Shown: one piece after another, positions 416 to 12,808 of the stretch
How positions within the stretch are numbered: position 1 is the stretch's first letter
Layout of the letters: every line of letters begins with the position of its first letter
Source: Okeania sp.
GTDB lineage: Bacteria; Cyanobacteriota; Cyanobacteriia; Cyanobacteriales; Microcoleaceae
Direction of reading: 5' to 3'
Assembly (NCBI RefSeq): GCF_035285525.1
Contig: NZ_JAYKGW010000172.1
Span: 1 to 13,374, forward strand
Length of the DNA: 13,374 nucleotides
Program-made: the position numbers and the translations under genes
The notes under the pieces: model-generated
What the model was told of the DNA's origin: nothing
The model's input: only the letters and a program-made list of their open reading frames with translations
The model's database searches: none

Positions 416-442
416 AAGCATTCAACTATTAGTTGAATGCTT
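416..442 (+). terminator. Hairpin (12-bp perfect stem, 3-nt loop) followed by a T-rich tract; candidate intrinsic terminator of the upstream gene
   Basis: aagcattcaact-att-agttgaatgctt, followed by acctttatattt. It lies 66 nt after the stop codon at 350 and covers the TTG at 433. Confidence 0.45.
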
Positions 443-471
443 ACCTTTATATTTGCCTACTGATAACTGAA

Positions 472-3400
472 ATGACACTATCATCTATTATTAAACTACT
501 AGGGCGATCGCCTCTCACAACTGAACTCTTAAACCAACTCCAAAAACACGAATGTTTACAACTAAACGGCGCTCCCCGTTTACCTAAAGGTTTAGTCGCA
601 TCTACCCTCGCCCAACAACAAGAGCAAAATTTACTCATTGTCACTGCAACATTAGAAGAAGCAGGACGTTGGGCTGCACAGTTAGAAGCTATGGGATGGC
701 CGACAGTTCACTTTTACCCGACTTCAGAAGCATCCCCTTATGAACCTTCCTACTCAGAAGAAATGATCTGGGGACAAATGCAGGTTTTGGCAGACTTAGT
801 TACTCTAGAAAATGCAACCAACAACGGTAATAATAAAGCCAAAATAGCAGTCGTGGCAACAGAGCGATCGCTCCAACCCCACCTACCTACAGTCAAAAAA
901 TTTCAACCCTACTGCTTAACCCTCTACTCTGGTATTACCATTAACTCCAAAACCTTCGATGAAAAACTTGCTCAGATGGGATACGAACGAGTACCCTTAG
1001 TCGAAACCGAGGGGCAGTGGAGTCGCCGGGGGGATATTATAGATGTATTTCCCGTCGCCTCAGAATTACCAGTACGTCTAGAATTTTTTGGCGACGAACT
1101 GGAAAAAATTAGAGAATTTGACCCTTCTACTCAACGTTCCCTTGACAAAATTTCCCAAATAGTGTTAACACCTAGAGATTTTAGTCAGTGGGGATTAGGA
1201 AATTTAGAGTCTGGCACTGACTCAATATTTGCTTCCCTGTTAGACTACCTGCCAGAAAATACTCTCATTGCCATCGACGAACCAGAACAATGTGTTGCTC
1301 ATGGCGATCGCTGGTTTGAACTGGTAGAAGAAAATTGGCAACAACTCAACACTGCCACAAAATCACCAAAAATTCATCGTACCTTTGCCGACTCCCTCGC
1401 AGAAGTCGAATTTTTTCCCAGACTATATTTATCAGAACTCGTCAAAGAAACCAAGAGCGGTATTACCGCCTCGGTTCCCTACACTCTCAACCTTGCCAGT
1501 CGTCCTTTACCAGTGATGCCACACCAATACGCAAAACTGGCAGAAAACTTGCGTCAAGAAAGGGAACGCAAACATTCCATTTTCCTCATTTCTGCTCAAC
1601 CATCGCGTTCCGTCTCTCTCCTTCAGGAACACGACTGTCCGGCTCAGTTTATTCCCAACTCCCGCGACTACCCTGCTATTGACAGACTGCAAACCCAATA
1701 TACTCCTGTTGCTCTCAAATATAGCGGTTTAGCAGAATTAGAAGGATTTATTTTGCCTACATTCCGGTTAACTGTCATCACTGACAGAGAATTTTACGGA
1801 CAACACACTCTCGCTACTCCCACCTATATTCGCAAACGCCGTCAAGCTGCTTCCAAACAAGTAGAACCCAATAAACTGCGACCAGGAGATTATGTAGTTC
1901 ATCGCCAACATGGTATCGGCAAGTTCGTGAAATTAGAAAGTTTGACTATAAACAACGAAACTCGCGACTATTTAGCAATCCAATATGCTGATGGTTTGCT
2001 TAGAGTTGCTGCCGATCAACTTGGTTCGTTGTCGAGGTTGAGAAGTACGGATAAGAAAAAACCGCAACTCAACAAACTGACTGGCAAAACTTGGGAAACT
2101 ACGAAAAATAAAGTCCGCAAGTCAATCAAAAAATTAGCCGTTGATTTACTAAAACTCTATGCTCAACGTTCTAAACAAACAGGTTACAGTTTTCCTCCCG
2201 ATACCCCGTGGCAAGAAGAAATGGAAGATTCGTTTCCCTATCAACCGACCCCCGATCAGTTGAAAGCAACCCAAGATGTGAAAAGGGATATGGAAAGTGA
2301 GCGAGCAATGGATCGTTTGGTTTGCGGTGACGTTGGTTTCGGTAAAACTGAAGTTGCCATTCGAGCAATTTTTAAAGCTGTTACTGCCGAAAAACAGGTA
2401 GCATTTTTGGCACCGACAACAGTTTTAACTCAACAACATTATCACACTTTGAAAGAACGTTTTGCTCCGTATCCCATAGAAATAGGTTTACTCAACCGCT
2501 TTCGTACTGGTAGCGAAAAGAAAGAACTTCAACGCAGGTTGGCAACTGGGGAATTAGATATTATTGTCGGTACTCACTCAATTTTAAGTAAAACGATCCA
2601 GTTTCGGGAGTTGGGGTTGTTGGTGGTAGATGAGGAACAACGGTTTGGGGTTAACCAGAAGGAAAAAATTAAGGCGCTGAAAGCTCAAGTGGATGTGCTA
2701 ACATTGACGGCAACACCAATTCCGCGAACATTATATATGGCGCTTTCGGGGATTCGGGAAATGAGTTTGATTACAACTCCACCTCCTTTGCGTCGTCCGA
2801 TTCAAACTCACCTTGCACCTTACGATCTGGAAACTGCTCGCACTGCTATCAGACAAGAATTAGACCGTGGAGGTCAGATATTTTATGTGGTGCCACGCAT
2901 TGAAGGTATTGAAGAATTAGCTGGAAAATTACGAGAAATGATTCCTGGAGCTAGAATTAATATCGGTCACGGACAAATGGATGCGGCAGAGTTGGAGTCA
3001 ATTATGCTAACGTTTAGTGCTGGGGAAGCTGATATTTTAGTTTGTACTACAATTATTGAATCTGGTTTGGATATTCCTCGTGTTAACACGATAATTATAG
3101 AAGATGCTCAAAAGTTTGGTTTGTCTCAGTTGTATCAGTTGCGAGGAAGGGTAGGACGTGCGGGAGTGCAAGCTCATGCGTGGTTGTTTTATCCGACTAC
3201 TGCTTCCGGTAATGCAGCGCTGACAGATGAGGCGCAAAAACGGTTGCGAGCAATTCAGGAGTTTACTCAGTTGGGTTCGGGGTATCAGTTGGCAATGCGA
3301 GATTTGGAGATTCGGGGAGCGGGAGATATTTTGGGAGCGGAACAGTCTGGACAGGTTAATACTATTGGATTTGATTTGTATACAGAAATGTTGGAGGAGG

Positions 3401-3897
3401 CGATTCGGGAAATTAAAGGTCAAGAAATCCCTCAAGTTGATGATACGCAAATTGATTTGAGTTTGACTGCGTTTATTCCGGCAGATTATATTCCAGATTT
3501 AGATCAAAAAATGGGTGCTTATCGCGCCGTTGCTACTGCTAATAGTCGGGAAGAATTGAATCAAATAGAGGTTGATTGGAGCGATCGCTATGGTGCTATT
3601 CCAAAAGTTGGTTTACAGTTATTAAGGATGATGGAATTAAAACAAATTGCCAAAAAAATGGGCTTTTCTCGGATTAAAGTAGAGGGCAAACAACACGTTG
3701 TTTTAGAAACACCAATGGAGGAACCTGCATGGAATTTATTGAAGGAGAAATTACCTGGTCATTTAAAGTCTCGTTTTGTGTTTAGTAAGGGTAGAGTTAC
3801 GGTTAGAGGTTTAGGTGTTTTAAGTGCAGATAAACAGTTGGAAAGTTTGATAGATTGGTTGGGTAAAATGGAAGGAGCTTTAGTAATGGATAATTAG
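472..3897 (+). CDS. mfd: Transcription-repair coupling factor Mfd (TRCF)
   Basis: Size is over 1100 aa. A CarD/RID-like segment is present ([14 protein letters not shown]). Superfamily-2 helicase motifs are present: [10 protein letters not shown] (Walker A), VVDEEQRFG (DEEQ box), [21 protein letters not shown]-terminal TRCF domain follows. I prefer the ATG at 472 ([10 protein letters not shown]...) because the TTG at 433 sits inside the upstream hairpin. Confidence 0.95.
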
Positions 3898-4005
3898 TAA
3901 CTTTAGTTTAGCAGACACGGATTTGGCCACGGATACACGGATTGATGCACAGATTATTAATTATTAATTATTAATGATGGATAATTAGTAAATTTAGTTT
4001 AGTAG
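3886..4005 (+). repeat. Direct duplication of the mfd 3' end including its stop codon (29 bp, 2 mismatches), with a CACGGAT repeat cluster and (ATTATTA)n between the copies
   Basis: 3886..3914 atggataattagtaactttagtttagcag versus 3977..4005 atggataattagtaaatttagtttagtag. CACGGAT occurs at 3916, 3928 and 3936, and CACAGAT at 3948. attatta x3 starts at 3953. Confidence 0.8.
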
Positions 4006-4110
4006 TGAACTATTTCAGTATCCCATAACCCCATTTTCTAATGTACCATTTAAAATGAAACAGTCTATTACTGAATTATTTATTATCAATTATTAATTAT
4101 CCATTAGATT

Positions 4111-4722
4111 ATGCCATTTAGTAATTACAAAAATATTGATACAGTTGCCCAAGAATTTCAAATTCAATATGTTTATGCAAATTTTGTCAATGAAATTAAA
4201 TTTTCCGTAAATCAGAATTTTATAGAGGAGTTAGATTTTACAATTTCTAATTTATCTGTATATACTTCAGAATATGCTATTTGTGAAAGTTTAATTTTTC
4301 CAATCTTAAAAGAAGTCTGGAAACTTTATTATGACAAATTAATGCTTTGGAGTCATAGGACTTTAACTTATGATGAAAAACTATCAGGACAACCAGATTA
4401 TATTGTCGCTCAACTCAGTCCTTTAGGTAGAATGATTTTTGGTAAACCCTATTTTTTATTAGTTGAAGCAAAGCTAGATAATTTTAACGAAGGATGGGGT
4501 CAATGTTTGGCTGAGTTATTAGCAGTACAGAAAATTAATAATGATTTAGAACAAACAATTTTTGGTATTGTTTCTAACGGTAAATTTTGGGAATTTGGAA
4601 AATTGAAAGGAGATATTTTTACCAGAAATATTGCCAGCTATAATATTGAAGATTTAGAGAAATTATTTGCTGTGGTAAATTATGTATTTCAGCAATGTTT
4701 ATTGCAGTTAGATAATAGTTAA
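4111..4722 (+). CDS. Standalone PD-(D/E)xK nuclease-fold protein resembling the HsdR N-terminal domain, paralogue 1
   Basis: The 203-aa ORF has the ordered motif E (AICESLIFPILKEVW) ... PD (SGQPDYIVA) ... ExK (FLLVEAK) ... Q (GWGQCLAELLAVQ). This is the restriction-endonuclease-like core seen in HSDR_N / HSDR_N_2 type domains. It has no other domain. It is about 70% identical to the 5037..5651 product by hand count (143/203). Confidence 0.75.
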   Translation: MPFSNYKNIDTVAQEFQIQYVYANFVNEIKFSVNQNFIEELDFTISNLSVYTSEYAICESLIFPILKEVWKLYYDKLMLWSHRTLTYDEKLSGQPDYIVAQLSPLGRMIFGKPYFLLVEAKLDNFNEGWGQCLAELLAVQKINNDLEQTIFGIVSNGKFWEFGKLKGDIFTRNIASYNIEDLEKLFAVVNYVFQQCLLQLDNS

Positions 4723-4810
4723 AAAAATTATAATATTTAGTATTTTATGGTGAGCGATCGCTATAATTTAAGCATTAACTGGGAAACAGTGCGCAAATAG
4801 CAATAAAAAT

Positions 4811-4916
4811 ATAGCATTTCCCAAGAAGGGTGAGGTACAGATATTAATAATTAAGTTTGATTAGTGCGAGCATCTTGCTCGCGCAGGTGTACCTCACGCT
4901 TAGTGAAATCTGCTAT
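4811..4916. repeat. Long imperfect hairpin / MITE-like structured intergenic element
   Basis: Outer arms are atagca/tgctat (4811-16 / 4911-16) and tttc/gaaa. A 10-bp arm gtgaggtaca (4830-39) pairs with tgtacctcac (4888-97). An inner hairpin is gcgagca-tct-tgctcgc (4866-82). A related half-copy (agtgcga...tcgcg...ggtgtacctcac) lies at about 12837..12888. Confidence 0.5.
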
Positions 4917-5036
4917 AAATAAAATAATTATTTACTTAACTTATACCACATTTTTAACCAGATAATTGAAGCACAATAACATTAATAATTAGAGATAGTT
5001 TTTATTATCAATTATCAATTATCCATTAAATTAATT

Positions 5037-5651
5037 ATGCCATTTAGTAATTATAAAAGTATTGCAGCAGTTGCCAAAGACTTTGAAATTAAGTATATTT
5101 TATCAGATTTTATCAACGAACTTGAATTTGCTGTACCTCAGAATTTTCGAGCAGAACTAGAATTATTATTCACAGATGGTGTTGTTGATAATTCAGAAGG
5201 TGCTATTTGTGAAAATCTGATTTATCCAGTTTTAAAAGAAGTCTGGAAAATGTATAGAAAAAAATTAACTCTTTGGAGTCATCAGACATTAACTTACGAT
5301 GAAAATCTATCTGGTCAACCAGATTATATAGTGGCAAAACGTCATCCTTTAACTACAGTTATTTTTGACAAACCATATTTTTTAGTAGTCGAAGCAAAGC
5401 AAGATCAATTTAATGAAGGATGGGGTCAATGTTTAGCTGAATTAGTCGCAGTACAGAAAATTAACCATGATTTAGAACAAATAATTTTTGGGATTGTTTC
5501 TAACGGTCAAACTTGGCAGTTTGGGAAATTAAAAGGAGATATTTTTACAAGAAATATTATCAGTTATAATATTGGAGATTTAGATAGATTATTTGCTGTC
5601 GTAAATTATGTATTTCAAGAATGTTTATTGCAGTTAGATAAGAGTGAATAA
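5037..5651 (+). CDS. Standalone PD-(D/E)xK nuclease-fold protein resembling the HsdR N-terminal domain, paralogue 2
   Basis: The 204-aa ORF has the same motif order: AICENLIYPVLKEVW ... GQPDYIVA ... FLVVEAK ... GWGQCLAELVAVQ. The homology with paralogue 1 extends about 35 bp upstream of the ATG (tttattatcaattat[t/c]aattatccatta). Confidence 0.75.
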   Translation: MPFSNYKSIAAVAKDFEIKYILSDFINELEFAVPQNFRAELELLFTDGVVDNSEGAICENLIYPVLKEVWKMYRKKLTLWSHQTLTYDENLSGQPDYIVAKRHPLTTVIFDKPYFLVVEAKQDQFNEGWGQCLAELVAVQKINHDLEQIIFGIVSNGQTWQFGKLKGDIFTRNIISYNIGDLDRLFAVVNYVFQECLLQLDKSE

Positions 5652-5994: not shown

Positions 5995-6570
5995 ATGACA
6001 AATTTGACTATCGAGCTTAACTCAGTAATTGACATGACAGAAGAACAATTTTTTCAACTCTGTCAAAAAAACCCGGATTTAAGATTTGAAAGAAATGCTA
6101 AAGGAGATTTAATTATTATGTCGCCGACGGGAGGAGAAACTGGAAGTTATAACGCTGGATTAACTTCTAAAATTTGGATTTGGAATGACCAAAGAAAGCT
6201 AGGTATAGTTTTCGACTCATCCACAGGTTTTCAACTCCCTAATGGTGCCAATCTTTCTCCTGATGCTTCCTGGATATCTATAGAAAAATGGAATAATTTA
6301 ACTCCCGAAAAAAGAACTAAATTCTTACCTCTTTGCCCTGATTTTTTAATAGAATTAATGTCACCTTCCGATAGCTTACCTAAAACTAGAGAAAAAATGA
6401 AAGAATACCTGGAAAATGGAATGCATTTGGGTTGGTTAATTAATCCTAAAAATCAGCAAGTAGAAATTTATCGTGCTGGTAAAGATGTGGAAATATTAGA
6501 CTCTCCGGAAATATTATCTGGTGAAGATGTTTTGCCTGGATTTATATTAGATATGACAACAATTTGGTAG
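5995..6570 (+). CDS. Uma2 family (DUF820) putative restriction-endonuclease-like protein
   Basis: The 191-aa ORF shows the family pattern ...RFERNAKGDLIIMSPTGGETG ... SPDASWIS ... PDFLIELMSPSD ... EYLENGMHLGWLINP. This family is highly expanded in cyanobacteria. Confidence 0.9.
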   Translation: MTNLTIELNSVIDMTEEQFFQLCQKNPDLRFERNAKGDLIIMSPTGGETGSYNAGLTSKIWIWNDQRKLGIVFDSSTGFQLPNGANLSPDASWISIEKWNNLTPEKRTKFLPLCPDFLIELMSPSDSLPKTREKMKEYLENGMHLGWLINPKNQQVEIYRAGKDVEILDSPEILSGEDVLPGFILDMTTIW

Positions 6571-6592
6571 TTAAAGAGGAGTAAACTGTAGG

Positions 6593-6612
6593 GACGTTCC
6601 ATGAAACGTCCT
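6593..6612. terminator. Hairpin between the convergent Uma2 and DUF433 genes (7-bp stem ggacgtt/aacgtcc, 6-nt loop), followed by ttt
   Basis: Read directly. Flanking gttaaag(a)gg and cctttaac can extend the stem. It is positioned between two convergent stop codons. Confidence 0.45.
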
Positions 6613-6659
6613 TTAACCAGACTTCCAGAAAGCAAGATAGCAATGGTTTAAATTGTAGT

Positions 6660-7091
6660 CTACCAAAATGATCGTGTTTTCCTTGCTTGACGCTTGGTTT
6701 TCCTTTCTGTCAGTTTAACTCGAACTGCTTCATATCCTGGACGGGGAGGACTGGCAGCAATTTTTGCCAAGCGATCGCGATTCTGTTCTTCCCAATAGGC
6801 TCGAATTTCTGCTGCCATCCTCAAAACTTCCTGATACTCTGCTTCAACTTCTACTTGATGGTTTTTTATATAAGAAAGAACACCATGGAGTTCCTCTTCA
6901 GTAAGATCGAAAGCATCGCGAATGTACTTGGGTGGATACTCAGCTTTGAGATAATCCATAATGTCATAGAGAGTAATCCGAGTACCTGAAATCGTTAGAC
7001 CTCTTTCAGTACGGATAATAATTGCTTCTTTGTGAGATTGGTTTATCATATTTTTTGTTGGCGTGAAAAATTTCAGCAGTCTTGTTTCCAT
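6660..7091 (-). CDS. DUF433 domain protein (antitoxin-like / small DNA-binding fold) with a charged C-terminal extension
   Basis: IIRTERGLTISGTRITLYDIMDYLKAEYPPKYIRDAFDLTEEELHGVLSYI matches the DUF433 pattern (GTRI..., L-T-x-E-x-(I/L)-x-x-x-L-x-Y). An alternative start is the ATG at 7049 (MINQSHKE...). No PIN/DUF5615-type partner gene is adjacent. Confidence 0.75.
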   Translation of the reverse strand: METRLLKFFTPTKNMINQSHKEAIIIRTERGLTISGTRITLYDIMDYLKAEYPPKYIRDAFDLTEEELHGVLSYIKNHQVEVEAEYQEVLRMAAEIRAYWEEQNRDRLAKIAASPPRPGYEAVRVKLTERKTKRQARKTRSFW

Positions 7092-7248
7092 TGTAGTTTA
7101 TATTTTGTTACAAGGAAACTGGCACTATATAGAGAATGTTAAAAGGTAAAATTATTTATATAAAAAAGTATATATAGAGTAAATCTCCACAAAATATAAC
7201 TATATGTAGAGTTAAAGCTGTAAATTTTCTACTTTTTTGTTGATAAAT

Positions 7249-7296
7249 TGCATACTATTGCCTGTAGAAAATAATTTGTGAATGCAATAGTATGCA
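7249..7296 (+). promoter_or_regulatory. Candidate C-box / operator: perfect 13-bp inverted repeat with a 22-bp spacer, ending 3 nt before the C-gene ATG
   Basis: tgcatactattgc (7249..7261) and gcaatagtatgca (7284..7296) are exact reverse complements. Each arm has GCA-N6-TGC internal symmetry. The position immediately 5' of the ATG fits the short-leader or leaderless C genes known in other R-M systems. Confidence 0.5.
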
Positions 7297-7299
7297 GTC

Positions 7300-7635
7300 A
7301 TGAAAAAATCTATTAATCAAGCTTTTGGCAGAGTGCTTGCTGCATACAGACAACTGGAAGGTTTATCCCAGGAAGATTTTGAAGGTGCTGCTCATCGTAC
7401 TTATGTTAGTGACTTAGAAAGGGGGTTAAAAAGTCCTACGTTAGAAGTGGTTTCAAAACTTGCTGAACGCCTAAATATTCATCCAACTGAGCTTATTTCT
7501 CAAACTTTTGCTTTGTTAGAAACAGATAAGATGCGATCGCCTCAATCTGTAATTAAGTACATCCTTAATAATTCTACTAATACAGACTTTACTTACACTA
7601 ATAAAGGAGAAAAATTCACGTCTAAAGAAGTATAA
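7300..7635 (+). CDS. R-M controller (C) protein, XRE/HTH_3 family
   Basis: LSQEDFEGAAHRTYVSDLERGLKSPTLEVVSKLAERLNIHPTEL matches the C-protein signature (G-x-S-Q-E ... HRTY(I/V)S..ERG.(R/K).P(S/T)L..(L/V)..(I/L)A..L). The gene sits directly upstream of a small nuclease ORF and opposite a methyltransferase. Its roughly 35-aa C-terminal extension is longer than in typical C proteins. Confidence 0.85.
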   Translation: MKKSINQAFGRVLAAYRQLEGLSQEDFEGAAHRTYVSDLERGLKSPTLEVVSKLAERLNIHPTELISQTFALLETDKMRSPQSVIKYILNNSTNTDFTYTNKGEKFTSKEV

Positions 7636-7647
7636 AAAGCAGCAATA

Positions 7648-8259
7648 TTGACAAACACAACGGTAATTACTTTGGCAATAATATTTAAACAAGTTGTTGG
7701 TATTAGTTTGTTTGAAGTAATAGATAAAAAGCAAACTGGAGCATTCATCGGAGCAATTTTTGTCTCAAATTTTGCCAATATTTCCTCACATTTAGTACTT
7801 AACCCATCTCAAACTGGTTATCCAGATTTAATCCCAAAAGAATATCTAAATAACTCATCCGCAATTAATTGGGATCAATTTCCTCATGGAGGAGTAGAAG
7901 TTAAAACATCTTGTGGAAGCTTGAAAACAGGAGTAACCAGTAATTTACCAGTAGGTAATTCTAGAATATCTTTTCTAACAGGTTTAGATTGGAAAGGACA
8001 TCATCAATATATTAATAATTTACTAGCTTTATTCTGGGATTATTTTGAGGGAATACCAACAATTATGTCGGCTTTTTATTCTAATAAACTTGTACCAAAT
8101 GACTTTTCAAATACAATTCCCAAAGCAGGAGGAGGAAGAACAACAAGTGTTTGTGTTACTAAAAAAACTGCTAGAGATAAATTGATGAATAATTGGGTTT
8201 TATTCTCTGATTTACCAGATTATATTCAGTTCTTTAAAAAGTTAGGAATTAACTACTAA
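7648..8259 (+). CDS. Candidate Type II restriction endonuclease (PD-(D/E)xK: ...GYPDLIP...GGVEVKTS...)
   Basis: The gene follows the C gene by 12 nt and converges on the C5 methyltransferase gene. The ordered residues are E (SLFEVID), PD (GYPDL) and EVK (GGVEVK). I recognise no named family. The only available start is TTG at 7648 or a nearby non-ATG codon. Confidence 0.6.
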   Translation: MTNTTVITLAIIFKQVVGISLFEVIDKKQTGAFIGAIFVSNFANISSHLVLNPSQTGYPDLIPKEYLNNSSAINWDQFPHGGVEVKTSCGSLKTGVTSNLPVGNSRISFLTGLDWKGHHQYINNLLALFWDYFEGIPTIMSAFYSNKLVPNDFSNTIPKAGGGRTTSVCVTKKTARDKLMNNWVLFSDLPDYIQFFKKLGINY

Positions 8260-8313
8260 AAATTACTTAAAGAAAATAGTTCAAGCTGCAAAGGATTTTC
8301 TTTTGGGGTTGTA

Positions 8314-9642
8314 TTAATATTTTTTTTCAGTAATATTAATTAAGTGTTGACCGAGCAAATACATAAATTTGGGTGGGATACTTTCACCGATTGATTCTCT
8401 GATTAAACTATCTGATGCTTGCTTAATTTTTTTGTTTTTCCAAATCAAAGGACCCCATTTATAATTAAAATCTGAAATAGTATGTAATTTACAAGCTTCA
8501 GCTAAAGAAAGTACGCGATTTTGTGTGGGATGAATATTACGATCTGAGCAAGGAAAACTTAAGTTTTTTGTTAGTGTAGGAGCTGGAATATCCCAGCTCA
8601 TTCTTTTGTAAGCACTGGTAAAACCTCGCATGATTCTCAATTTTCCATCTTTAGTTTTAGTAAATGGTCGTGGTAATAAATCGCCACATTTAATGCAGTA
8701 TAAAGGAGTATTATTATTGGCTCGATTAATACCTGAAGAATCACGAGAAGCTTTATGTGTGGGATTATTTTTAAATCCACATTTTGGATTAATACATTGA
8801 TTATTAAATGCTGAATTTCCTTCAGGAGTGTGACTAATCCATTGATATTTTTCAGGAGTTAATATAGGTACATAGTGAAGTGGTAAATTAGGATGTTTTG
8901 CGGTTTCTGAATTTTTGCCATCTAAAATAGGAAAGTCACCTATCGTATCCTTAACTGTAATCCATTTAGGAAGTGAATTTTTTCCTAGTTGATGATGAGT
9001 TTCTGGAGGAATTAAAGAACCACCAGACTGTAAATATTTTTTAGCAATTGGTAGTTTGGAATAAACTGTAATTAATCTTTTTCTACATTGTGGAATACCA
9101 TAATCAGCAAATTCAACAACTTTTGATTCACCGATATATTCCGAACCTAAATATTCAGAAATTAAGTCTAAAATAGGTCTTAATTTTCCATTTTCATCTT
9201 CTATAACTGTATTAGACATTCGTGAAACATTTTCAAAAATAATCCATTTTGGTTTTAATGCTACCGCGATACGAAGAGCAGGTAATATAAGTCTATTTCG
9301 TGGGTCTAATTTTGGGCGGAGACCTTTTCTAACATTTAATAAAAGAGTTCCTAGTCCATTTTGTGACATTCCTTGACAAGGTGGTGTTGCAATTATAGCA
9401 AATAGTTCTTGATTGCCAATTATTTTGTGAACTGTATTCATAATTTCTTCTTCTTTATTTAAAATATCTTCATTTATTACGGTAGAATTAGGAAAGTTAG
9501 TTTTGATTAAATTAGCTCGTTCTGTAATAAGTTCATTATGTAATAAGAATTGAACGCCTGCTGTTTCAAATGCTTTATCGCCAATGCCCGAACCTGCAAA
9601 TAAACTGACTGCTAATTTAGTTTCAAAAGAAGAAGGAAACAT
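8314..9642 (-). CDS. DNA (cytosine-5)-methyltransferase
   Basis: All canonical C5-MTase motifs occur in order: I LFAGSGIG, IV TPPCQGMS, VI IIFENV, VIII QCRKRL, IX RVLSLAEACKLHTI, X IGESIPPKF. A long variable (TRD) region lies between VIII and IX. Confidence 0.95.
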   Translation of the reverse strand: MFPSSFETKLAVSLFAGSGIGDKAFETAGVQFLLHNELITERANLIKTNFPNSTVINEDILNKEEEIMNTVHKIIGNQELFAIIATPPCQGMSQNGLGTLLLNVRKGLRPKLDPRNRLILPALRIAVALKPKWIIFENVSRMSNTVIEDENGKLRPILDLISEYLGSEYIGESKVVEFADYGIPQCRKRLITVYSKLPIAKKYLQSGGSLIPPETHHQLGKNSLPKWITVKDTIGDFPILDGKNSETAKHPNLPLHYVPILTPEKYQWISHTPEGNSAFNNQCINPKCGFKNNPTHKASRDSSGINRANNNTPLYCIKCGDLLPRPFTKTKDGKLRIMRGFTSAYKRMSWDIPAPTLTKNLSFPCSDRNIHPTQNRVLSLAEACKLHTISDFNYKWGPLIWKNKKIKQASDSLIRESIGESIPPKFMYLLGQHLINITEKKY

Positions 9643-9650
9643 AGGATAAG

Positions 9651-9670
9651 ATTGAGTAAAATTGAGTAAA
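9651..9670. repeat. Exact tandem 10-mer (attgagtaaa x2), 9 nt upstream of the methyltransferase start codon
   Basis: Read directly. An inverted 8-mer copy (ttactcaa) lies at 9819..9826, near the mrr start. Confidence 0.8.
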
Positions 9671-9850
9671 GAAAATAGTAGAAATTTAATTATACATTAT
9701 TGGTGAGCGATCGCTCTACCAGCATTAAAAAAATCTACAAATTTTATATTTTTCAAGACTACTAAACTATTCTTACATCTGTGGGTATTTATCAAAAAGG
9801 TTATTTGGTAGAATACTCTTACTCAAAGTCAATATATCCATGAAGCTATT

Positions 9851-10735
9851 ATGGCAAAGCCAAATAAAGGACCTCAGTTTGTCAAATATTTTGCACCTGT
9901 AATTTCAGCATTAAAAGAATTAGGAAATTCAGGTACTCCCTCAGAAGTTAAAGATTTAATTGCTATAAATTTACAAATATCTGATAATATTCTTGATGAA
10001 CAATTACCCAGTGGAACATCATCTAGATTTGATAATCAAGTTGCATGGGCAAGATTTTATTTAGTTAAAGCTGGATATATTGATTCATCAAAAAGAGGGA
10101 TTTGGAAATTAACAGAAGCTGGAATTAATTCAGAAATTACATCTAAAAAAGCTCTGGAAATCTTTCAAAAACTTCAACAAGCTTTTCGTCAAGAGAGTAT
10201 AAATAATCAGATTAATAAAGAGCTAGAAACAGATGAAGATAATGTTGCAGCTCCCGACTCAAACGAAAATAGTTTCAGAAACTATCGCCAAGAACTATTA
10301 GAAACTATTAGAAATCTTTCACCTAGTGGCTTTGAACATCTCTGTCAAAGACTATTACGAGAATCTGGGTTTCAACAAGTAGAAATTACAGGTAGAAGTG
10401 GAGACGGTGGTATTGATGGCAAAGGAATATTACGGATTAATTTATTAATAAGTATTCCTGTATTATTTCAGTGTAAACGTTATATTGGTTCAGTAGGAGC
10501 GCCAGAAATTCGTGATTTTCGTGGGGCAATAATGGGAAGAGCAGATAAAGGTATATTTATTACAACTGGAACATTTACCAGTGAAGCTCGTAGAGAAGCT
10601 GTTAGAGATGGAGTTCCGCCCATAGAATTAGTAGATGCTAGTAAATTAATTCTAATGTTTGAACAGTTAGAACTTGGTTTAATACCCAAAACTGTTGATG
10701 AGATTGATAAAAGGTTTTTTAAGGAGTTTAGTTAA
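9851..10735 (+). CDS. mrr: Mrr-type (Type IV, modification-dependent) restriction endonuclease: Mrr_N winged helix plus Mrr_cat
   Basis: The N-terminus (FVKYFAPVISALKELGNSGTPSEVKDLI...FDNQVAWARFYLVKAGYIDSSKRGIWKLTEAG) fits Mrr_N. The C-terminal part (FEHLCQRLLRESGF...GRSGDGGIDGKG...LFQCKRY...IRDFRGAI...GIFITTGTFTSEA) fits the Mrr catalytic core (D...QxK). Confidence 0.92.
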   Translation: MAKPNKGPQFVKYFAPVISALKELGNSGTPSEVKDLIAINLQISDNILDEQLPSGTSSRFDNQVAWARFYLVKAGYIDSSKRGIWKLTEAGINSEITSKKALEIFQKLQQAFRQESINNQINKELETDEDNVAAPDSNENSFRNYRQELLETIRNLSPSGFEHLCQRLLRESGFQQVEITGRSGDGGIDGKGILRINLLISIPVLFQCKRYIGSVGAPEIRDFRGAIMGRADKGIFITTGTFTSEARREAVRDGVPPIELVDASKLILMFEQLELGLIPKTVDEIDKRFFKEFS

Positions 10736-12746: not shown

Positions 12747-12766
12747 TTTAGTTATCAGTTATACTA

Positions 12767-12808
12767 GGGAACAGGGAACAGGAAACAGGAAACAGGGAAC
12801 AGAGAAGA
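12767..12808. repeat. STRR-like heptanucleotide tandem repeat, about 6 units of GGGAACA/GGAAACA (TGTTCCC/TGTTTCC on the mnmG strand)
   Basis: gggaaca gggaaca ggaaaca ggaaaca gggaaca gagaaga. It starts 21 nt upstream of the mnmG ATG. Confidence 0.85.

Follow-up and report, generated by a model that had tools for sequence, protein, structure and literature searches.

Can1 and Can2/Card1 are CARF-fused PD-(D/E)xK effectors that are genetically tied to type III CRISPR loci. Cas4 is a small CRISPR-linked PD-(D/E)xK nuclease with many copies outside CRISPR loci, the solo-Cas4 proteins (PMC5704561). A further group is catalogued in PADLOC as PDLC01472, 'PD_DExK' (CRISPR-associated); a differently seeded, possibly separate 'PD-DExK' cluster (Marme_0670) has also been described (PMC6546367). 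We analysed a window of 13,374 nt, one contig of Okeania sp., which carries two tandem genes for small proteins, here named A1 and B; gene and feature coordinates refer to this window unless a locus number is given. Both genes are new members of a catalogued, uncharacterised family, whose closest known entity is PDLC01472. With a probability of about 0.6, we interpret A1 and B as selectively maintained solo members of a cyanobacterial PD_DExK endonuclease family, lying in an array of old duplications and acting as independent immune effectors.

Two intact duplicates of a catalogued nuclease family

The two genes, identified as open reading frames (ORFs), are as follows, with lengths in amino acids (aa):

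4111-4722, plus strand: paralogue A1, a 203-aa stand-alone PD-(D/E)xK nuclease (ORF; PADLOC PD_DExK E 4.6e-46; AlphaFold2 model); the derived copy type, with patch LDFTISNLSVYTSE at residues 41-54, grouping with the A1 orthologues of loci L001-L004
5037-5651, plus strand: paralogue B, a 204-aa stand-alone PD-(D/E)xK nuclease (ORF; PADLOC PD_DExK E 4.1e-48); the ancestral-like copy type, with patch LELLFTDGVVDNSE, identical to the family consensus, grouping with the B orthologues of L001-L003 and L009-L011

A1 and B are real, intact duplicates of a small PD-(D/E)xK nuclease family. A sequence-only reading of the window had described two same-strand genes of 203 and 204 aa about 315 bp apart, and the ORF listing agrees, with a spacer of 314 nt. 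Its hand count of 143/203 identical residues was reproduced by BLASTP (0 gaps, E 2e-110). The uneven divergence that it reported was also recovered on recount: identity is 24/50 (48%) in residues 1-50 and 2/10 in residues 41-50, against 99/123 in residues 81-203 (80%, compared with the earlier figure of about 83%).

That reading knew of no assigned function for the family. The family itself is catalogued: A1 and B match the PDLC01472 profile (E 1e-46 to 1e-48), with residues 53-196 aligned to profile positions 2-143 and 143 of 146 positions covered, and other members occur within type III-D cas operons. The profile is matched equally well by cas-embedded, ATPase-linked and distant members. Pfam and NCBIfam scans returned no family for A1, B or ten other members, and PDB sequence searches with a single protein or with a 47-sequence profile gave nothing meaningful. 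RefSeq labels the family members 'hypothetical protein'.

The intact E...PD...ExK...Q catalytic signature noted earlier in both proteins is conserved across 47 homologues. In their alignment E54, P95, E119, A120, K121 and Q131 never vary, and position 96 is Asp or Glu; A1 and B each carry the full E54/D96/E119-x-K121/Q131 set. An AlphaFold2 (AF2) model built on this alignment had a predicted local distance difference test score (pLDDT) of 90.9 and a predicted template modelling score (pTM) of 0.90. It contains helix 54-73, strands 77-81, 97-102 and 110-120, helix 125-143 and strand 149-155, forming an alpha-beta-beta-beta-alpha-beta core, with an N-terminal extension of about 50 residues ahead of it. 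The features of the superfamily are present: the core fold, an Asp that opens beta2, a (D/E)xK motif that closes beta3 and a helper Glu in alpha1.

Foldseek searches with the model found no close solved relative. The best solved nuclease matches were the N-terminal domains of DrdV (7lvv, 7lo5) and BpuSI (3s1s), with E values of 7.5e-3 to 4e-2, template modelling (TM) scores of 0.44-0.48, root-mean-square deviations (rmsd) of 4.5-5.5 Å and about 10% identity. Other matches were viral PD-(D/E)XK proteins and a Pandoravirus DUF5898 protein. The top PDB matches were mitoribosomal proteins with rmsd of 9-12 Å over about 300 columns, and were treated as uninformative. The motifs, the AF2 topology and the Foldseek matches to PD-(D/E)xK domains at modest scores support the earlier description of A1 and B as minimal PD-(D/E)xK nucleases, which would cleave nucleic acid in a metal-dependent, Mg2+-type reaction.

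Genomic contexts of the family

Among representatives of clusters at 50% identity, 1,014 match the family at E<=1e-3, of which 338 do so at E<=1e-10. The named hits among the 120 best homologues listed are all cyanobacterial, and 15 cyanobacterial plasmids carry a family gene. Phage origin or an anti-CRISPR function was considered and dropped, as the phage collection held no homologue.

We surveyed the context of the family gene in 80 genome loci, in which ORFs were called and clustered and recurrent neighbours annotated. Three main contexts were found: type III-D operons, ATPase operons in Nostocales, and an mfd-linked array. About 30 of the 80 loci have the family gene inside a type III-D effector operon, in the order Cas10, Csm3, Csx10 (Cas5), Csm2 (Cas11), CARF-RelE, Csm3, family gene, Csm3, Csx19, large Csm3, Csx21. 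In 24 loci it has a same-strand csm3 gene on either side, at median distances of 24 and 29 nt. An independent sample was taken from Csx19-anchored metagenome contigs (L083-L142), among which 38 type III-D loci had enough upstream sequence. The family gene was found at a fixed position before csm3-csx19 in 26/38 of these and was absent from 12/38, and is therefore a frequent yet dispensable III-D accessory. By Pfam, the Cas10 of family-containing III-D operons has no HD domain, consistent with the report that only 3% of III-D Cas10 proteins carry one (PMC11229360). The HD-less Cas10 N-terminus is alike in III-D loci with and without the family gene.

In Nostocales (about a dozen loci) a helix-turn-helix (HTH)-AAA_16 ATPase gene (neighbour cluster c9) lies upstream of the family gene and ends 2-4 nt before it in the tightest cases. 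An nSTAND1-type ATPase gene lies downstream in nine Nostocales loci. This ATPase and nuclease pair is a candidate uncharacterised module. The ATPase-linked loci are L012, L013, L015, L022, L027, L033, L042, L044, L048, L057 and L064, with the genes near position 10000 in most of them; PADLOC gave only a weak PDC-S27 match for the AAA_16 ATPase. The third context is that of the window: mfd is immediately upstream of the family gene or genes here and in 9/11 Okeania, Dapis and Trichodesmium loci.

A neighbour-joining tree of 92 full-length family copies has two clades. One is mostly cas-embedded; the other is solo and unites the mfd-linked genes, A1 and B among them, with the ATPase-linked genes of Nostocales. 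This topology bears on the possibility that the solo copies are accessory nucleases acting in trans for a type III effector, of III-D or another subtype, whose genes lie at a different site in the genome. The solo copies are about 60% identical to the cas-embedded ones and match the profile equally well. A solo copy on an Allocoleopsis plasmid lies among Csx3/Crn3, Cas3', Cas6, Cas4 and Cas1 genes, and since 12/38 III-D loci have no embedded copy, supply in trans is conceivable. However, solo and cas-embedded copies fall in separate clades, a Stigonema metagenome-assembled genome (MAG) holds both kinds (L044, solo; L072, cas-embedded), and the Nostocales solo clade has its own conserved partner in the c9 ATPase. 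We consider action in trans improbable.

Other genes were seen near family members. Beyond csx21, where the cyanobacterial III-D operon ends, a Gp49/ParE-like toxin gene is often found (L024, 14176-14538; L017, 14357-14662), followed in some loci by a small partner gene (L029, L032). In a Sphaerospermopsis plasmid (L082; 4408-5037, 14351-14980) a 209-aa HSDR_N-like PD-(D/E)xK protein and a DarT single-stranded DNA ADP-ribosyltransferase are encoded near the family gene, and these surroundings are another defence-rich neighbourhood. The 209-aa protein has sub-threshold HSDR_N matches and aligns weakly to the family profile (hhalign E 0.007, probability 5%).

The mfd-linked array and the divergence of its copies

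The mfd-linked group comprises three paralogue classes, A1, A2 and B, of which the window has A1 and B and lacks A2. Related arrays hold 1-3 intact copies plus fragments and pseudogenes:

L003: A2-A1-B
L001: fragment-A1-B
L002: A1-fragment-B-fragment
L004: A1 and a fragment
L007: A2 only
L010: B only, and a distant fragment
L009 (Trichodesmium MAG, 9373-10609): B then A1, in reversed order, A1 with an in-frame stop at codon 15
L008: a frameshifted chimeric copy, A2 and B

The in-frame stop identifies the L009 A1 as a pseudogene. The mfd array evolves by birth and death and has no fixed two-gene unit. The sequence-only reading had instead proposed that A1 and B are a dedicated two-gene module, acting as a heterodimer or as alternative specificities, with an N-terminal patch under diversifying selection as the recognition surface. 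A1 does recur beside B in L001, L002 and L003 as in the window, and a tandem array whose copy number changes is typical of conflict genes. However, the only intact copy is A2 in L007, B in L010, and B in L009 beside the A1 pseudogene, and L004 has A1 with a fragment. Because a single intact copy is all that some relatives have at the locus, A1 and B are not obligate partners, and an obligate A+B heterodimer is unlikely.

The second part of this proposal concerns the pattern of divergence. The marked drop in identity at residues 41-50, compared with the region from residue 81 onward, is what had suggested a hypervariable patch. We found that the patch differs between paralogues yet is near-constant among the orthologues of each class. 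It reads LDF[A/T]IS[N/H]LSVY[S/T]SE within A1 and LELLFTDGV[V/I]DNSE within B; within A2 it is LEFLLSHGTIYGSE in 4/5 copies and LDFLLSHGAVYSSE in L005. The B patch equals the consensus of the whole family, Nostocales and cas-embedded members included.

Ratios of nonsynonymous to synonymous divergence (dN/dS) were calculated by the Nei-Gojobori method, and changes on the stems were assigned by parsimony with Nostocales outgroups; these are crude methods applied to few sequences. Between A and B, dN/dS was 0.66 in the patch (codons 41-50), 0.65 in codons 1-53 and 0.30 in codons 54-203. Among orthologues it was 0.38 (A1), 0.05 (B) and 0.34 (A2) in the patch, and 0.24, 0.16 and 0.15, respectively, over the whole gene. 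On the A stem 8/24 replacements fell in codons 41-53, compared with 0/14.5 on the B stem. This clustering on the A stem, 8/24 in 13/203 codons, is significant (binomial p = 8e-5) and speaks for the two-gene proposal; the pN/pS of the same codons on this stem, 0.60, does not. As dN/dS is below 1 in every comparison, the genes are under purifying selection, and diversifying selection on the patch is not supported. The near-invariance of the patch within classes and the family-wide B consensus also argue against a dedicated module of this kind, which we regard as unlikely.

The uneven divergence of A1 and B is instead an old, now-fixed class difference, in which one localised, asymmetric shift after duplication was followed by conservation. 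Because the A-stem replacements are so strongly clustered in the patch, this shift may have been functional. The burst could reflect ancient adaptive change or local relaxation, which these methods do not separate. In the AF2 model the patch forms the end of helix 35-47 and the loop into the catalytic Glu54; as the patch leads into this residue, it could plausibly influence the binding of a substrate or partner, and the A/B difference may alter substrate or partner preference. Gene conversion was also considered, from the low synonymous divergence in codons 1-30, where the counts are too small to claim it.

The DNA around the two genes contains the following repeat elements, found with a tandem repeat finder (TRF), as direct (D) or inverted (I) repeats, or by RNA folding:

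4074-4106, no strand: heptamer/14-mer tandem repeat ATTATTA/ATTATC, directly upstream of A1 (TRF; direct repeat D5)
4810-4917, no strand: nested palindromic element of 108 nt in the A1-B spacer (inverted repeat I2; RNA fold)
5004-5028, no strand: heptamer tandem repeat ATTATCA x3.6, directly upstream of B (TRF; direct repeat D5)

About 35 bp of upstream DNA had been taken as part of the duplicated unit. The match itself is real, with 94% identity over 33 nt (4079-4111 and 5001-5033; D5). Its duplication together with the gene is not shown: the match is a common local repeat composed of tandem heptamers (ATTATCA/ATTATTA, by TRF). Heptamers of the ATTATCA type precede most family copies in the Okeania and Dapis relatives. 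As they vary in copy number and recur elsewhere within the relatives' family loci, the upstream repeat need not belong to the duplicated unit. Further heptamer tandem repeats in the window lie at 3953-3975 and at 12766-12806 (AGGGAAC x5.9, near mnmG).

The palindrome at 4810-4917 has a predicted RNA fold of -44.4 kcal/mol (z -6.2 against shuffled sequence). It belongs to no Rfam family, and an Rfam scan of the window gave nothing. Intercopy spacers in related arrays are mostly 20-90 nt, much shorter than the one in the window, and partial copies of the palindrome occur elsewhere (L001, 9872-9959; L009, 17446-17469); for both reasons it was probably inserted as a dispersed element, which may be a small one resembling miniature inverted-repeat transposable elements (MITE) or repetitive extragenic palindromes (REP). 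Promoter and terminator scans of the region gave nothing above the shuffled background.

Beyond the array, the window contains the following, where REase denotes restriction endonuclease:

433-3897, plus strand: mfd (transcription-repair coupling factor), conserved as the anchor on the left of the array in Okeania, Dapis and Trichodesmium (ORF; neighbour cluster c11)
5995-10735, no strand: variable defence island right of the array (Pfam, PADLOC), made up of the next six entries
5995-6570: Uma2 (Pfam/PADLOC)
6660-7091, minus strand: DUF433 (Pfam/PADLOC)
7300-7635: C-protein HTH (Pfam/PADLOC)
7648-8259: type II REase (no Pfam match; PADLOC REase_II E 3e-45)
8314-9642, minus strand: C5 methyltransferase (Pfam/PADLOC)
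9851-10735: Mrr type IV enzyme, methyl-directed (Pfam/PADLOC)

A1 and B had been placed at the edge of a nuclease/methylase island, and the Pfam and PADLOC annotations agree, with restriction and methylase genes to the right; the genes on this side differ between relatives. On the other side, the arrangement beside mfd raises the possibility of a non-immune, housekeeping nuclease for DNA repair or processing, tied to Mfd and transcription-coupled repair. In the window and in 9 related loci from three genera, mfd is followed directly by the array on the same strand, and the strong sequence conservation and purifying selection would suit such a role. The linkage is, however, limited to one lineage, as elsewhere the family occurs in cas operons, beside STAND-type ATPase genes and on plasmids. 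Copy number is variable and pseudogenes are common, a variable defence island borders the array on its far side, and a repeat-rich gap of 213 nt separates mfd from A1. We therefore give a repair role in concert with Mfd very little weight.

The stretch 7300-9642 is a complete type II restriction-modification unit (C-protein HTH, REase and opposite-strand C5 methyltransferase), followed by Mrr. A type II restriction-modification pair involving the family gene was rejected: no methyltransferase cluster recurs beside it in the 80 loci, and the C5 methyltransferase in the window belongs to its own C-protein/REase unit. Uma2 genes recur immediately beside the family gene, in the window (5995-6570), within several type III-D operons and on Allocoleopsis and Planktothrix plasmids; the loci outside the window are L017-L019, L034, L063 and L081 (9760-10380). 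This adjacency may be chance, since Uma2 genes are very abundant in cyanobacteria. The 94-aa ORF at 66-350 matches DUF4351 weakly and contains a 12-nt tandem repeat that encodes (EGRQ/EGRI)n. It resembles what is left of the C-terminus of an Rpn/PDDEXK_2-type protein, and complete PDDEXK_2 genes come after the array in L001, L003 and L008.

Interpretation and comparison with known systems

Under the interpretation that we favour, of solo members acting as independent immune effectors, many cyanobacteria would transcribe the family gene together with the two cas7/csm3 genes that flank it in an HD-less type III-D operon, and the window copies represent a sister clade found outside such operons. 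The solo clade would be translationally coupled to an HTH-AAA_16 ATPase in Nostocales, and in Okeania, Dapis and Trichodesmium it forms a tandem array just downstream of mfd, beside a variable defence island. Old duplications would have produced A1, A2 and B, with copy gain, truncation and pseudogenisation following. B would keep the ancestral sequence, and the A lineage would have undergone a one-off burst of replacement in residues 41-53, conserved since. Each protein would then act independently as an immune effector, probably as a homo-oligomer.

Several observations weigh against this interpretation. The searchable literature holds catalogue-level mentions of the family and no biochemical or genetic characterisation, so both nuclease activity and an immune role are what we infer. 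Identity of about 60% across cyanobacterial orders is unusually high for a defence gene, and the stable site of the array beside mfd could equally point to a housekeeping role. PADLOC found no cas gene and TRF no CRISPR-like array within the 13.4-kb window, so A1 and B are PD_DExK members by sequence in a non-cas context. A role for the family gene as a stand-in for the absent HD DNase of Cas10 is unsupported by its distribution, as Cas10 is HD-less in III-D loci whether or not the gene is present. How an unregulated solo nuclease would avoid self-damage has no explanation.

A broader reading is conceivable, though we consider it rather unlikely. The family could be an unrecognised modular immune nuclease deployed in three control systems (HD-less III-D, HTH-AAA_16/STAND ATPase and mfd arrays), with the segment before Glu54 setting the partner or substrate. 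If the segment did so for each copy, the A1/A2/B array would be a small specificity repertoire.

By itself, the window is a clear example of the solo, duplicated state and reveals no new kind of system. It is the wider pattern of III-D slot, ATPase-coupled solo clade and tandem arrays that is worth following. No Pfam or NCBIfam model and no solved relative was found for the family, yet it numbers some 1,000 clusters at 50% identity, and a large proportion of the cyanobacterial III-D systems with HD-less Cas10 carry it at one fixed position between cas7 genes. Learning its substrate would fill a gap in the understanding of these systems, and the solo clade, whether ATPase-coupled or in tandem arrays, is a simpler setting for testing the enzyme.

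The closest comparison is with the PDLC01472 proteins of type III-D operons, which share a length of about 200-210 aa, the same invariant E/D/ExK/Q residues and about 57-61% identity with A1 and B. In contrast to these, A1 and B lie outside cas genes, in a separate solo clade and in tandem beside mfd. Like Cas4, the family is a CRISPR-linked PD-(D/E)xK group with many solo copies, but in cas loci its gene sits among effector genes (csm3, csx19), away from cas1/cas2. Assignment of A1 and B to Cas4 was rejected, with no Cas4 profile match at E<=1 and a marginal Foldseek match to Cas4 SSO0001 (E 0.28).

The HsdR N-terminal nuclease domain, to which the proteins had been likened, belongs to the same superfamily and has a similar motif order. 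The proposed resemblance does not extend further: HSDR_N (PF04313) and HSDR_N_2 (PF13588) gave no Pfam match for A1 or B at E<=0.1 or for ten other members at E<=1, and HsdR structures are outside the top 50 Foldseek matches. A1 and B (203 and 204 aa) stand alone, with mfd and Uma2 as neighbours and no superfamily 2 (SF2) helicase, HsdM or HsdS partner, and are not part of a Type I system, as had been concluded before. The type IIL/IIG enzymes DrdV and BpuSI differ in having their nuclease domains fused to methyltransferase and specificity modules. Unlike Can1 and Can2/Card1, A1 and B carry neither a CARF nor a SAVED sensor domain, and only the extension of about 50 residues stands ahead of their nuclease core. 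In the III-D operons that contain the family gene, the CARF sensor is a separate CARF-RelE protein.

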